Origin: Gemmatimonadales bacterium
GTDB taxonomy: Bacteria > Gemmatimonadota > Gemmatimonadetes > Gemmatimonadales > GWC2-71-9
NCBI GenBank assembly: GCA_037189525.1
Contig: JBBCJC010000003.1
Location: 416,001 to 480,000, forward strand
Reading direction: 5' to 3'
DNA: 64,000 bases
Shown: positions 46,364 to 63,838 of the stretch, in pieces
How the letters are laid out: every line of letters begins with the position of its first letter
How positions within the stretch are numbered: position 1 is the first letter of the stretch
Translations under genes and position numbers: made by a program
The notes under the pieces: model-generated
What the model was told of the DNA's origin: nothing
The model's database searches: none
Seen by the model: the letters and a program-made list of their open reading frames with translations, nothing else

Positions 46364-46711
46364 TCAGCGCCCGAGCACGATATCGATGCCGTGGAGGATT
46401 TGCAGGAGGTGTTTCGGTCCCAACCGGGTTACCGGCTCGTCGAGAAAGCGACGATCGATCGTCGTGAGCTGTGACGCATTCGCGACGGAGTCCTTCGTCA
46501 GGCGCGTCACCTTGGCCGGGAGTAACGTGTTGCCCGGCGCGTCTGCCCAAGCGAGGTTGCTCGTGAGTGGGACGCACACAACGGTGGCGATGCGGCTCCG
46601 GTTGAGACTGTTGCCTTGGACGACGACAACGGGTCGGCGGAACCCGGGCCCGGACCCGGCGGGAGCGGGAAGGTCAGCCCACCAGATCTCCCCTTGGACA
46701 ATGCCTACCAT
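46364..46711 (-). CDS. mazF: MazF/PemK-family endoribonuclease toxin
   Basis: GEIWWADL...RRPVVVVQ...CVPLTSN...DSVANASQLTTID. Confidence 0.92.
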   Translation of the reverse strand: MVGIVQGEIWWADLPAPAGSGPGFRRPVVVVQGNSLNRSRIATVVCVPLTSNLAWADAPGNTLLPAKVTRLTKDSVANASQLTTIDRRFLDEPVTRLGPKHLLQILHGIDIVLGR

Positions 46712-58184: not shown

Positions 58185-59192
58185 CTAGGTTTTCCTGCGG
58201 GCCGTGACATCTGCGATGATGTCGCGCAACCCGTCGCGGCGAACCGGATAGGTGAAGTTTGCAAGAATATGATTACGCCCTTGCCGACCCATGTCAGCTG
58301 CGTATGAGGGGTTGTCGAGGAGCCTGATCGCCGCCGTTGCGATCAAGTCCGGTTCTGGTCGTTCAAGGAGGATCGCGCCAGGGCCGACTACTTCGGCAAC
58401 AGCTCCTTGCGGATTTGTTACCACCGGCGCTTCGCAGGCGATCGCCTCGGCGATTGCAAGCCCGAATCCTTCCAGGAGGGTCGGTTGCAGGTAGGCGGCG
58501 CATGTCTGCATCAGGTGGATTTTTTCTGTTTCGCTGATGATGCCGAGGAAATCGATGGCGTGCTCGACGTTGAGATGCCTGGCAGTGTCCACCAGCGTCG
58601 TGTGATACTCTCCTTGTCGTCCGGCCATTCGGAGCCGAACGTTCGGATGCTTCTCGAGGATGGCCGGCATTGCCTCGATGATCTCGCGAAGGCACTTTCT
58701 GCGACCGTTCGTTGCGCCGCTCCATGCGACGTTGAACAGGAACGGCTCACGCGGCTGATTGCCGGGATGGTACCGCTCTGTGTCGACCGTACAAGGGACG
58801 TAACGGGGATTCGGAGCGCCGAACAGACGTGTCACGAGTTCCAGTTCGTAGTTCGATACGAAGACATTGGCGTCGGCACGGTGGAGCATGGCCTTGAGGA
58901 CCTGGCGTTTCCACCACGAGCGGCCGATCCCGGGGATACGTTCCGACGAGTAGTCGTACACGCCGGTGATGATCATCGGCTTGCCCTTGGCTCGGGCATG
59001 GAAGTAGGGTAGAAATGCCCAGGACCACCACCATACGAAGTAGAGATCGCAGTCCGGTGGGATGTCGCGAAATCGTGTGGCGGTCACTACCTCGTGACCG
59101 AGATCTTTCAGGGCACGAATATCCTGAGCGTAGAAATTGACGGTGACGAGAATGTCTTCCGAGGGCACTTTGGCAAAGAAGCAAATACGCAT
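58185..59192 (-). CDS. Glycosyltransferase family 4 (GT-B fold)
   Basis: FVSNY, VDTERYHP, EGFGLAIAEAIACEAPVV, GAVAEVVG. Confidence 0.88.
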   Translation of the reverse strand: MRICFFAKVPSEDILVTVNFYAQDIRALKDLGHEVVTATRFRDIPPDCDLYFVWWWSWAFLPYFHARAKGKPMIITGVYDYSSERIPGIGRSWWKRQVLKAMLHRADANVFVSNYELELVTRLFGAPNPRYVPCTVDTERYHPGNQPREPFLFNVAWSGATNGRRKCLREIIEAMPAILEKHPNVRLRMAGRQGEYHTTLVDTARHLNVEHAIDFLGIISETEKIHLMQTCAAYLQPTLLEGFGLAIAEAIACEAPVVTNPQGAVAEVVGPGAILLERPEPDLIATAAIRLLDNPSYAADMGRQGRNHILANFTYPVRRDGLRDIIADVTARRKT

Positions 59193-60332: not shown

Positions 60333-61589
60333 GTGGTGATCCGCCGGATTACGCCCGGTCGACGCGAGTTCCTTTACCTCGCGGCCTTTACCGGTTTGGT
60401 GCAGGGCGGTCCGCTGCTTTCACAGCTCGTTCTTGCGCGAGCTTTGGGGCCGTCGCTCTTTGCGCCGATTCGGGTGGCTGAGAGTGTCCTCTCGATTGCC
60501 TGGGTCCTTGCCGGCGCTGGTTTCGCCTCCGCCGCGGTCCGATTTGCCGGCGCGGTGGCCGTCGATCGTACTGCCCAAGCCGTTCTCGGGTTTGTCCTCA
60601 AGTCTGCAATTGTCGCCAGTATCGTGGTTGCCGCCGCGATTGCCGGTGCGGGCGGTTTTGCTCCTCTCTCTCCGCAGGCATTGGCCGCATCCCGGATTGC
60701 CTGCTGGTCGCTGGTCGGCATGGCCATCTCCCGAGTCCTCGTCAACTATTTCCAAGGTCGAGGTGAGCTGCATCGCATTGTGGTCGTTGGACTGAGCACC
60801 TTCGTCGTGTCGGCGATGCTGCCGATCATTGGTGGCGTCCTCTCGGGAGCAGAAGGCTGGGCCTGGTCTCGCCTGGGCGGAGAGACCATAGGTGCGCTTG
60901 CCTTGCTCGCGATTGCGCGAGTCCAGTTTCGCTTGGGGCTCGACCAGGTCCTGCGGCGACAAACGCTGCGCTACGCATTGTGGCTTGCCGTGTCGCTGTC
61001 CTTCGATCGAGTGACAGCCATGGCGGACGCCATCTATCTCGATGCGCTGGTTCGGGATCCTGAATTGGTGGGCCAATACGGTGCGGCCATCGCAATCGTT
61101 TCAGGCGCGCTCGTCATACCGGGGGTCTGGGCTGCGTACCAGTTGCCCCGTCTCGCGCGTGTAGTGTACGAACCCGCCGCGTTTCGAGCTGCTGTCATCA
61201 GGTGGTCCCGAGGGTACTTCGGGGTGCTCGGAACTCTTGGAGTCACGATGTGGATCGGGGCAGGAGTGATCGTGAACCTCCTGGTCGGACCCCAGTACTC
61301 TCTTGCCGAGCAATTGGTTCGAGTCCTTGCAATCTGGATGTTCTGCAGCGGTGCCTTGACGTTTTTCGGGACCTTGCTGCTCGCCTTGGGTCGTCCTGCC
61401 TGGGCCGTTTCGCAGAGTGCGGTGGGATTGGCCGTTAGTGTTCCGCTCAATCTCGTGCTCATCAGCCAGTTCTCGGTATGGGGCGCCGTCGCTGCAGCCT
61501 TGATCACGGTTGCCGTCCGGTTGCTGTTGATCATTCCGATGGCCTATCTCGGCGCGCGGCGCGCGGCTCTGGCGGGAGTCCCCGGATGA
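60333..61589 (+). CDS. Wzx-type oligosaccharide flippase
   Basis: Many TM segments, LARALGP, VGQYGAA, LNLVLISQFSVWGAVAA; start approximate. Confidence 0.8.
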   Translation: MVIRRITPGRREFLYLAAFTGLVQGGPLLSQLVLARALGPSLFAPIRVAESVLSIAWVLAGAGFASAAVRFAGAVAVDRTAQAVLGFVLKSAIVASIVVAAAIAGAGGFAPLSPQALAASRIACWSLVGMAISRVLVNYFQGRGELHRIVVVGLSTFVVSAMLPIIGGVLSGAEGWAWSRLGGETIGALALLAIARVQFRLGLDQVLRRQTLRYALWLAVSLSFDRVTAMADAIYLDALVRDPELVGQYGAAIAIVSGALVIPGVWAAYQLPRLARVVYEPAAFRAAVIRWSRGYFGVLGTLGVTMWIGAGVIVNLLVGPQYSLAEQLVRVLAIWMFCSGALTFFGTLLLALGRPAWAVSQSAVGLAVSVPLNLVLISQFSVWGAVAAALITVAVRLLLIIPMAYLGARRAALAGVPG

Positions 61590-63838
61590 TCTCGCGACCG
61601 GGATCGTACGGATTCAAAGTCGGCGTCTTCGGGTGCGCTGCCGTTGCGATCGTGTCGCTAGGCCTTGCCTCGGTGGTGAGGGTGGGGTTTTTCCCAATCG
61701 AATTGTTAGGCGCTTTGGTTGGATTGGCGTCGGCAGGGGTCATTGCTCGTCGCAGGGTCGAAGAACAAATGTGGGCGTGGATCGTTCTTTTTGTCCTGTT
61801 GATGGGTTACGTCGTCAAGTCGTTCGCTTTTCTCTTATGGACCGAGTATCTCGGGGGTGAGTTGGCCGAACTCGACTGGGTCAGAGTCGACGATGTGGTC
61901 AACGGCTTTTTGCCTATCGGTACTGCCTTTCTTGCCTTCGGGCTTGCCGCATCGTGGCTTGCACGGGGATACCGTAGTTCATCCACGACGATCAGTCTCC
62001 GGCCTCCGGATCACGGCGTGCTTCGCTCGGTCATCGTCATTGCAATCGCACTCGGGGTGATTACAACAGTCATCCCCTTCCTGCTCGGATTCGGAGCAAT
62101 GGGAGTTGCACACCAACCGCTGCCATTCAGGCTCGATATCCCCATAACGCGCATGCGGGTCACGCTGGTTCCTGCCGTCCTTGCCTGCTGCGCGTGGATC
62201 GCTGATCGGCATCGAATGCGGTCCGCCGTGGTCCTGGCGATCGGTGGCTTGGTCGGGGTTGCCCTGCTGGATGCTGTGGTTCGGGGCAGCAGGGGGAGTC
62301 TGGTGCTCTTCGTTCTTCCGGTGCTGCTGACGTGGATTGTCGAGGACCGTGTTACGCTGCAACGTCGTTGGGGCATGGTTGCGTTCGTCGCGACGTTCCT
62401 GGTGCTTCACCCGGTGCTCAGCGCCGTGCGGTATGCTCGCATGTTTGGTGACGTGGTGAGTGTCGGGGCGGTCCTTGACGCTTTACGCTCAGGTGATCTC
62501 GCCAGTCTGTTCAGCGGCGCATTTGTCGGAGCATCGATGCGTGTTTCCGGGGCGGACGGTGTATGGTGGGTCGGTTTGAATCAGCCGACGGCATGGAATT
62601 GGCAATTCCTGTCGTTGTTTCTTCAGGACGGGAAGTTCACTCAGATTTTCACATGGGATATCATCGGAGTGGCGAGAGAGGCCGATTGGCGAGCTCCGAC
62701 ACTGTTAGGAGTTTTCCTCTTTATCGGCGGCCTGTCCGCGGTTGCCGCGCTTACTTTCGCGTGGTCTGGGGTTTTGGCGAAGGCGAATCAATGGGTGAGC
62801 CGTCTGCATTCGGCACCTGCAGCACTCGGGATCTTTGGAACGTTCTGCTTGATTTGGGTGAGCGAAGGCAAGTTTGGTATTCGGGAACCGATTGGCCTGG
62901 TGATTGCCCTCATTCTGGTCGAGATATTGACGCGCTGGCTTTGCAGTTCGAGCCGTTCCACCGGCCAGCGCGATTCGAACACCGATCCTCTACTCCGGCA
63001 GAAGTACGTTCATTGGGTAACCGTTGGGGCTGCAGTCGGGCTCGTGGGCGCCGCGATAGGCAGCCGGCAGGCGATGGTAACGGCGCGGGTTCTCCCGCTC
63101 AGCGACGTCGTGCGGGTCGAGACCCAGGTCGACGTGGATCGCGAACTGGACGATCTGGGCTATGACGTTCCGCAGCCAGGTAACCCCCATGTGGTCGCGC
63201 AGCTAGCAAGGGCGTCTGTCGTTCTCGAATCGTCGGTGCGGCGCTCCTTGGGGGCTGAAGGGCAGCAGTGTGAGTTGTGCGTTCAGGAGGCAATCTCGCG
63301 TCTGCGGAGGAATTTACGGGTGTCGGTACGCGGGGCAACGGGTGTCGTCAGCTTTCAACTCGCGTCGTCCGACGTTACGGAGGCCACGTCATTGATCGAG
63401 GGCGTGATCGCGGCAATCGACTCGGTCGAGGTCCGGCGCAGGCAGGGGCAGGCGATCACCCAGGCTGACTTGCTTCGGCGTCTCGAGCATGAACGGGTGG
63501 AAGAGGAGCGACGTGCGGAGCGTACGCGGACAGCATTTCTTGACGCCAACCGCCTGATTGCTGGTGCGCCTCGGTTGGAGGAGCGCCTTCGGGCGCTCGA
63601 CAACGACCTGGTGAGGGCGAGGGACGAGCGCGCTCGGGTCTCGCGGTTTGCCGCCCAGAGAAGTCTCGATGCGGCGGATTCTCGCTCGGCAATCGCCTAT
63701 ATCGACAGGCCTGCTGCGGAGGATGGCGGCGTTCCCGGGATGCGGCTTTTCTGGCTCCTGATGGGTGCGAATTGTGCTGGAATCGCGTTCGGACTCTGGT
63801 CGTCGAGGTCGGCGTCTAAGCCGGGAATCGCCGGTTGA
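61586..63838 (+). CDS. Polytopic membrane protein (Wzy-like polymerase) fused to a C-terminal Wzz-like co-polymerase domain
   Basis: About 450 aa of TM segments with a GSRG motif and a loop region, then a TM-coiled coil-TM module alignable by eye to the Wzz-like protein at 59366; ATGA coupling to the flippase. Confidence 0.7.
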   Translation: MISRPGSYGFKVGVFGCAAVAIVSLGLASVVRVGFFPIELLGALVGLASAGVIARRRVEEQMWAWIVLFVLLMGYVVKSFAFLLWTEYLGGELAELDWVRVDDVVNGFLPIGTAFLAFGLAASWLARGYRSSSTTISLRPPDHGVLRSVIVIAIALGVITTVIPFLLGFGAMGVAHQPLPFRLDIPITRMRVTLVPAVLACCAWIADRHRMRSAVVLAIGGLVGVALLDAVVRGSRGSLVLFVLPVLLTWIVEDRVTLQRRWGMVAFVATFLVLHPVLSAVRYARMFGDVVSVGAVLDALRSGDLASLFSGAFVGASMRVSGADGVWWVGLNQPTAWNWQFLSLFLQDGKFTQIFTWDIIGVAREADWRAPTLLGVFLFIGGLSAVAALTFAWSGVLAKANQWVSRLHSAPAALGIFGTFCLIWVSEGKFGIREPIGLVIALILVEILTRWLCSSSRSTGQRDSNTDPLLRQKYVHWVTVGAAVGLVGAAIGSRQAMVTARVLPLSDVVRVETQVDVDRELDDLGYDVPQPGNPHVVAQLARASVVLESSVRRSLGAEGQQCELCVQEAISRLRRNLRVSVRGATGVVSFQLASSDVTEATSLIEGVIAAIDSVEVRRRQGQAITQADLLRRLEHERVEEERRAERTRTAFLDANRLIAGAPRLEERLRALDNDLVRARDERARVSRFAAQRSLDAADSRSAIAYIDRPAAEDGGVPGMRLFWLLMGANCAGIAFGLWSSRSASKPGIAG

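Follow-up and report, generated by a model that had tools for sequence, protein, structure and literature searches.

Described polymerase-copolymerase systems and the fusion locus

The WzyE-WzzE pair of enterobacterial common antigen (PMC10030265; PDB 8C0E) combines a Wzy-type polymerase with a kinase-less polysaccharide copolymerase (PCP) that has two transmembrane (TM) helices; the two proteins are encoded by separate genes, at one Wzy to about eight identical Wzz. Here, we describe a locus in which the same two components, a Wzy-like polymerase and a two-TM, kinase-less PCP fold, occur in one protein. The window (i.e., the whole stretch of DNA that was analyzed; 64,000 nucleotides from a Gemmatimonadales bacterium; G000:C3:416001-480000) carries a fusion gene in which one PCP is joined covalently after the last helix of the polymerase, and this PCP is 22 to 24% identical to a free copy encoded nearby.

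The PslJ-PslE-PslD system of Pseudomonas aeruginosa and the Wzy-Wzc-Wza system of E. coli (PMC13434223, PMC13469938) likewise have Wzx, Wzy, PCP, and outer-membrane polysaccharide export (OPX) components in a cluster. Compared with Wzc, the family of the fused and free PCPs lacks a kinase domain, and its hairpin is much shorter, with nothing equivalent to about 65 Wzc residues (296-363); whereas PslJ docks via its N-terminal TM1-2 (PMC13434223), the covalent join here is at the Wzy C terminus. EpsV of Myxococcus xanthus (PMC12004946) is also a kinase-less PCP in a Wzx/Wzy pathway with an OPX protein, but it is larger, stands alone, and partners the pseudokinase EcpK, while no kinase was found among the 16 cluster open reading frames (ORFs) scanned here. 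A 2025 review (PMC12004945) states that the structure of a Wzy was yet to be solved, and in the WzyE-WzzE and PslJ-PslE maps the polymerase appears at low resolution only (PMC10030265, PMC13434223); the placement and control of Wzy in the PCP ring are still open in the field. We found no report of a natural Wzy-PCP fusion in a literature search whose coverage left out most subscription papers and supplements, and the available parts of PMC10030265, PMC12004945, PMC13434223, PMC13469938, PMC12004946, PMC12819527, PMC7310880, and PMC10920833 do not describe one. The arrangement is apparently undescribed, within the known Wzx/Wzy pathway.

One reading frame across the junction

A sequence-only reading of this DNA had noted an apparent natural Wzy-Wzz fusion of about 750 amino acids, with a short polar linker expected to be cytoplasmic, alongside a free Wzz paralogue. 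We found a single ORF that encodes 750 amino acids plus a stop and consists of a Wzy-like N-terminal half (N-half) and a PCP C-terminal half (C-half); 12 predicted TM helices precede the linker, in agreement with a cytoplasmic position, and the free paralogue is present. The parts are as follows.

61586..63838, + strand: fusion gene, 750 amino acids (Wzy-like polymerase plus PCP module)
61586..62944, + strand: Wzy-like module, residues 1-453, 12 predicted TM helices
62945..63004, + strand: polar linker, residues 454-473, predicted cytoplasmic
63005..63064, + strand: PCP TM1, residues 474-493, Gly/Ala-rich
63065..63733, + strand: PCP periplasmic domain, residues 494-716, four-stranded sheet base plus long helical hairpin
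63515..63580, + strand: hairpin tip, residues 644-665
63734..63811, + strand: PCP TM2, residues 717-742, then a tail of about 9 residues
59366..60319, + strand: free kinase-less PCP (Wzz-like), 317 amino acids, Pfam Wzz above the cut-off

The fusion ATG overlaps the TGA of a flippase gene at 61586-61589 (ATGA) and has a fair ribosome-binding signal (-6.6 kcal/mol). The linker segment quoted in the sequence-only reading, SSSRSTGQRDSNTDP, corresponds to residues 454-468 (62945-62989), and the GSRG motif named in that reading, to residues 234-237. No in-frame ATG, GTG, or TTG occurs within the linker (62945..63004).

The junction was checked on contigs, not raw reads, by comparing eight runs with the stretch. 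In run X1, which is possibly the source of the assembly, one contig spans the whole stretch at depth 96.6 with zero differences. In run X3, from an independent study, a 348-nucleotide contig over 62816-63163 (depth 2.5) crosses the junction and reaches 129 and 173 nucleotides to either side of the linker, with four substitutions (I432V, Q461P, Q472R, and A483G), no gap, and no stop; it is the only bridge among the records listed for the seven runs other than X1. The contigs of X1 and X3 thus contain neither a stop nor a frameshift at the junction, either of which had been named in advance as grounds for rejecting the fusion. Since the frame is intact in two studies, the Wzy-PCP fusion is real and its junction is no artifact.

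A PCP fold in the C-terminal half

The C-terminal module aligned with the free PCP at 22% identity over 295 columns (E value, 9e-11), and every segment that had been quoted as matching was found in both proteins. Against a profile of 30 stand-alone relatives, the module scored 63.8 bits (at most 5.2 bits for 200 shuffles), with an HHalign probability of 97.8. The two halves were modeled separately; the C-half model (mean predicted local distance difference test [pLDDT] score, 86.7) contains TM1, the four-stranded base, the long helical hairpin, and TM2, i.e., a PCP fold from end to end, and Foldseek matched it to Wzc (E value, 5e-10), WzzE (2e-8), and KpsE (9e-8). The Pfam Wzz and GNVR families gave no match on the fused module (0 families), and an intact sibling, P0166, likewise had no hit.

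No kinase domain follows TM2, so the fused module is not a PCP-2a (Wzc) protein. The family profile matched, among PDB entries, Wzc (E value, 1e-20), KpsE (2e-14), FepE (4e-11), the chain length determinant 6RBG (4e-9), and WzzE (4e-4). Because this profile favors Wzc and KpsE and the cluster holds an OPX gene, "kinase-less PCP" is a safer label than "O-antigen Wzz." The terms "Wzz" and "chain-length control," as first applied to this gene, are too narrow, given a profile closer to Wzc/KpsE than to WzzB/WzzE and a cluster that ends in an OPX gene; judging from gene content, the cluster probably serves capsule or secreted polysaccharide (EPS) export as much as O-antigen length.

The only three invariant columns of the PCP alignment (F651, N655, and P662) lie in the hairpin tip. 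The fused module also has a periplasmic CxxC (QQCELCV; C562 and C565; window 63269-63280) at the site of the family's variable insert, which is about 25 residues shorter here, and a disulfide possibly stabilizes the shortened loop.

A Wzy-like family in the N-terminal half

The fusion protein had no match in Pfam or NCBIfam (0 matches). Exhaustive searching with phmmer returned 217 hits; the top 150 comprised the protein itself, 146 matches to the N-half (some of them fragments), and 3 to the C-half. Only 1 of these 149 relatives is at least 550 amino acids long: P0079 (694 amino acids), a member of the same Wzy-like family, which ends in a dual-specificity phosphatase domain (DSPc above the Pfam cut-off) instead of a PCP and may represent a real fusion or a gene-calling join.

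An AlphaFold2 model of the N-half, built from 124 sequences (pLDDT, 90; predicted template modeling score, 0.91), shows twelve membrane helices, with TM9 followed by a loop of about 100 residues. Wzy proteins are described as having 10 to 14 TM helices and a long extracytoplasmic loop near the C terminus (PMC12004945, PMC10920833), and the predicted helix number and periplasmic loop of the N-half fit this description. The helix number is even, which puts the C terminus of the N-half on the same side as its N terminus, presumably the cytoplasm; the loop charges agree modestly. Conserved Arg residues on the outer face, another Wzy feature, are also present: R282 and R319 are invariant in the 124 sequences, and R236 and R285 are conserved in 85% and 77%, respectively. 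S235, R236, G322, T356, and P371 are nearly invariant in the family, and all are retained in the fusion.

Language-model features pointed to a Wzy O-antigen polymerase (score, 0.99; 76% of the top cluster carries PF14296); this score is uncalibrated for protein parts. O-ag_pol_Wzy clusters led the hits (25 of 30). None of the 103 relatives scanned passed a Wzy Pfam cut-off (the best was PF14296 in P0136; E value, 1e-4), HHalign of the family against single Wzy_C and O-ag_pol_Wzy proteins was not significant, the family profile had no real match among PDB sequences, and a search of plasmids gave no match. Weak hits of the family profile in 401 genomes fell in 14 places, and all 8 that were scanned were Wzy_C (6, above the cut-off) or O-ag_pol_Wzy (2, below it). 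Relatives of the N-half lie directly after or near Wzx flippases in two of the three named genomes (L059 and L061). In the latter, from Fimbriimonadales, a flippase and a family Wzy are followed by a convergent PCP-like gene with weak Wzz and GNVR hits (L061:7397-8692, -).

A wide structural search with the N-half model gave alignments of more than 200 residues only to the shape, elongation, division, and sporulation (SEDS) proteins RodA and FtsW and to the ligase WaaL (PDB 6PL5, 8BH1, 8TJ3, and 7TPJ), with Z scores of 7.4 to 9.2 and root mean square deviations (RMSD) of 4.6 to 6.1 Å (RodA, Z 9.2, 245 residues, RMSD 5.0; FtsW, Z 9.2, 235 residues, RMSD 4.6; E. coli RodA, Z 8.4; WaaL, Z 7.4, 247 residues, RMSD 5.7). 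These scores are moderate, lying below the approximately 13 advised for helical bundles, and designed helical repeats scored equally over short ranges; moreover, the first four helices of the N-half were left unaligned. Foldseek found no match for the model at E values of ≤0.001 in the PDB or among viral structures. WaaL is described as having a conserved catalytic His in a periplasmic loop (PMC10920833). The periplasmic loop of the N-half family has no conserved His (the highest His share, 0.42, is at query V225 in TM7), which argues against WaaL.

The Wzy identity had previously been based on topology, genomic context, and the GSRG motif; to these are now added the invariant Arg residues, the language-model hit, the flippase context of relatives, and 12 predicted TM helices, while fold comparison reaches only a SEDS/WaaL-type fold at moderate Z scores. 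The N-half most likely works as a Wzy, from a family outside Pfam coverage, as judged from sequence comparison and modeling. It lies within the family range in all six of its segments (26th to 79th percentile). Decay of its N-terminal TM1-2 docking segment after the fusion was considered and rejected, since the segment ranks at the family's 30th percentile.

Proposed placement of the fused module

We propose, at a probability of roughly 45%, that the fused PCP module is a specialized, tethered subunit in a ring otherwise made of the free PCP. In the published rings, about eight PCPs surround one Wzy, which measures about 50 Å and occupies a cavity of 57 Å; TM2 faces inward (toward Wzy in WzzE) and TM1 outward (PMC10030265). 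PslJ sits likewise in its ring and docks by TM1-2 next to the C-terminal tail of the PCP (PMC13434223). A ring composed entirely of fusion proteins is unlikely because it would leave no room for eight polymerases; hence, the fused module would either join free subunits, as we propose, or stay outside the ring. With its 14 to 20 residues, the linker could reach across a single layer of helices. Through the tether, each ring would hold one fixed polymerase, and the sequence constraint on the fused subunit would be relaxed. The PCP hairpins of Wzc and PslE meet the OPX protein (PMC13469938, PMC13434223), and the hairpin tip kept in the fused module may still meet the OPX protein of this cluster, with a capsule or secreted polysaccharide as the likely product. 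A more specific form of the proposal, which is conceivable but doubtful, is an asymmetric ring in which one unique subunit, joined to the polymerase and reshaped along the lumen-facing coiled coil, is accompanied by about seven ordinary subunits; such a ring would fix both the Wzy register and the 1:8 stoichiometry, with the odd subunit perhaps acting as a seam or gate through which substrate enters or polymer leaves.

Several observations weigh against ring membership. The fused module is only 22 to 24% identical to the free PCP with which it would assemble, and it keeps 23 of 72 conserved columns, compared with 48 to 69 in the stand-alone relatives. Its first strand, both coiled-coil shafts, and the Pro-rich segment before TM2 (P709 is retained, but the second conserved Pro is replaced by E712) score below every one of the 30 stand-alone relatives. 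TM1 is the least hydrophobic of 31 sequences and TM2 is at the edge, on crude hydrophobicity scales. PslJ-type docking suits the opposite fusion order, and the join here is to the outward-facing TM1. Free tree searches placed the long branch of the fused module next to P0115, away from the free PCP and its L058 counterpart (see below), although this placement is unsure, and a Wzy-then-PCP fusion was seen in one species only. Being the most diverged of its family, with shafts below those of every stand-alone relative, the fused module is not an ordinary protomer by sequence, and its divergence counts against an ordinary subunit.

The divergence is large and uneven. Leave-one-out scores were 268 to 452 bits for the 30 stand-alone PCPs, compared with 63.8 bits for the fused module, whose branch in quick trees was 3.2 to 4.8 (median, 0.8), i.e., the module diverged 4 to 6 times faster. 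Scores within the family range were kept by the sheet base (560-596), the tip of the hairpin (644-665), and TM2, a pattern that may be favored by the fact that most PCP relatives were found with the fused module as the query. Within residues 496-720, every one of the 10 strain differences is silent (0.32 expected; P about 1e-5); the silent share is 6 of 10 for the N-half, 4 of 5 for the free PCP, and 0 of 3 for the linker plus TM1. All 49 listed differences come from contigs at depth 2 to 3.8, which lessens their weight in favor of the proposal, and sequencing errors would bias toward residue changes. The 289 codons of the C-half are open, with no stop or frameshift despite several changes per site, and the frame seems to have been maintained even though a stop would yield an ordinary Wzy again. 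On these sequence grounds, the fused module looks specialized rather than dead.

The alternative that survives best, although we consider it unlikely, is that the module is folded and needed but stays outside the ring, as a private adaptor or stabilizer of its own polymerase or as a link to the OPX protein, while the free PCP forms its own ring. Such a role would account for the loss of family-like sequence in the shafts, which are expected to contact neighbors, while the tip, sheet base, and TM2 were kept, and it agrees with the excess of silent changes, the long branch (3.2 to 4.8 versus a median of 0.8), the loss of about 25 residues of the variable insert, and the gain of the CxxC. However, the module retains the whole protomer architecture and the hairpin length, which an adaptor does not obviously need, and, judging from PMC10030265, a Wzy enlarged by two helices would be hard to accommodate in the published cavity unless this pair occupied a position in the ring.

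We judge it improbable that the C-half is a redundant duplicate, caught by chance read-through and decaying, with the Wzy half and the free PCP working alone. The strong divergence, the marginal TM helices, the occurrence of a single fusion, and the alteration of the residue in all three differences in the linker and TM1 are what decay would produce; the 10 silent periplasmic differences of 10 and the 289 codons without a stop or frameshift are not, and the loss of conservation is patterned rather than uniform, although the divergence could predate the fusion. Still less probable is that the gene yields two proteins, either because signal peptidase cuts TM13 as an internal signal (A490-I491-G492) or through a restart at TTG L448. 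TM13 is Gly/Ala-rich, marginal, and preceded by basic residues, and the TTG (62927) is in frame; but the free and L058 PCPs likewise have a Gly-rich TM1, the TTG lies inside TM12, and its ribosome-binding signal is -3.6 kcal/mol versus -6.6 kcal/mol at the fusion start (several real starts are equally weak).

There is little to recommend the view that the N-half is another GT-C enzyme (a ligase or modifying transferase). Consistent with it are the lack of Pfam and NCBIfam hits, the 0 of 103 relatives passing a Wzy cut-off, fold matches that include WaaL at a moderate level only, and the empty Foldseek result; against it, the loop His is not conserved, 25 of 30 language-model hits are O-ag_pol_Wzy, relatives lie near Wzx in two of three named genomes, and the fusion is the sole multi-TM polymerase candidate besides the flippase and PglF in C3:472000-500000. 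An assembly or sequencing artifact joining two genes is barely credible: the comparison used contigs rather than reads, and the deep run X1 may be the assembly source, but the depth of 96.6 shows no variant and an independent contig bridges the junction.

If the tethered-subunit proposal is true, a natural tether with a free PCP in the same operon would fix the position of the polymerase in the ring, and might plausibly cure the blurring of polymerase density in maps. The locus is useful as a naturally tethered construct that can be compared with a split sibling and with a free paralogue, and it also defines an unannotated Wzy-like family with at least 146 representatives. The significance of the locus is limited by the observation of the fusion in one species only and by a ring membership that is proposed from sequences and models.

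Origin of the fusion

The closest relative found is a metagenome contig (L058) that carries the split form, wzy / wzz / glycosyltransferase family 4 (GT4). Its Wzy is 45% identical to the N-half, and the TGA of this gene overlaps the ATG of a separate, intact PCP (TGATG) that is 43% identical to the free PCP and 23 to 25% identical to the fused module. The GT4 after wzz is 42% identical to the window GT4 (58185..59192). In the window, the GT4 and free PCP genes are divergently oriented, but in L058 the GT4 gene lies on the same strand after wzz, and this difference in orientation implies that the cluster was rearranged around the PCP gene.

In two of eight same-genus loci, wzx, a Wzy_C-type gene, and wzz neighbor one another, with overlaps of the ATGA type. 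A small in-frame loss where the stop of wzy and the start of a neighboring wzz overlapped may have produced the fusion, while another copy of the PCP gene remained separate; the gap from the last Wzy helix to PCP TM1 is about 13 codons shorter in the fusion. The fused, free, and L058 PCPs have in common an LW(M/L)xxG start of TM2, and in rare residues shared with the fused module the free PCP ranked first of 44, by a small margin. A forced clade of these three PCPs was not rejected by the approximately unbiased test (p-AU, 0.709) and had a log-likelihood 12.3 above that of the quick free tree (28 of 31 rows; LG+G4). The fused and free PCPs are plausibly duplicates by sequence; the divergence could predate the fusion.

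Distribution

No second fusion was found among the best 149 non-self relatives of the 217 phmmer hits, and the 146 listed relatives of the N-half are not fused to a PCP. Word-indexed searches with the whole protein and with the N-half returned only the protein itself, as did a word-indexed search (weak evidence) with a profile of the last two thirds of the N-half against proteins of 616-2000 amino acids. None of the 35 non-self matches of the C-module in the 401 genomes is a fusion. A screen of short PCPs for other fusions revealed none in the 12 places with long frames that were fetched; the 317 weaker matches outside that list would include any module diverged to the degree of the fused one (E value, 5e-17). 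The tally of this screen, 262 of 401, counts the unpublished genome G361, on which nothing else here depends. A close relative of the N-half was not found in 400 genomes of the phylum or in 21 of the genus.

Gene cluster and surroundings

The 5' side of the fusion is formed by the divergent GT4 gene, the free PCP gene (two genes upstream), and the flippase gene.

60336..61589, + strand: Wzx-type flippase, Polysacc_synt above the cut-off, start codon uncertain
58185..59192, - strand: GT4 glycosyltransferase, divergent from the free PCP gene

On the 3' side, past the window end (12 ORFs scanned), lie genes for a GT4, a heparinase II/III-like protein, a dehydrogenase, a Bac_transf initiator, PglD-, DegT-, and PglF-like proteins, and further transferases. 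The cluster ends downstream, on the opposite strand, with an 855-amino-acid OPX protein containing Poly_export and six SLBB domains. The G+C content at third codon positions is 0.65 to 0.71 in the four cluster segments measured, compared with 0.81 to 0.85 in five housekeeping genes, which suggests a foreign origin of the cluster. The interval after hflX in eight same-genus genomes holds variable polysaccharide genes; in the stretch fetched, one stand-alone PCP is present in six of eight loci and an export gene in four of eight.

Scans for promoters and terminators remained near the shuffle level (3 promoter-like sites versus 1.3 ± 1.2; 7 terminator-like sites versus 6.6 ± 2.8), and ribosome-binding energies gave no sign of higher expression of the free PCP gene. 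The heparinase II/III-like gene (L039:2225-4063; G000:C3:481225-483063), common to two same-genus loci, could trim or clear polymer. Between the pyruvyl-transferase-like and PglF-like genes is a 257-amino-acid ORF without a Pfam match (L039:11142-11915; G000:C3:490142-490915), with relatives in two same-genus loci. A second polysaccharide region (L040 and L041; G000:C1, about 211000 and 249000) encodes an 810-amino-acid Wzz-domain protein of Wzc size and a Wzy_C gene above the cut-off, and a further Wzy_C gene is located at C5:713621. A ligase for the product of the cluster could be encoded there. Elsewhere in the window, a 115-amino-acid ORF between an ABC permease gene and a YraN-like gene (46364-46711, -) seems to resemble a PemK/MazF-type toxin of a toxin-antitoxin pair.

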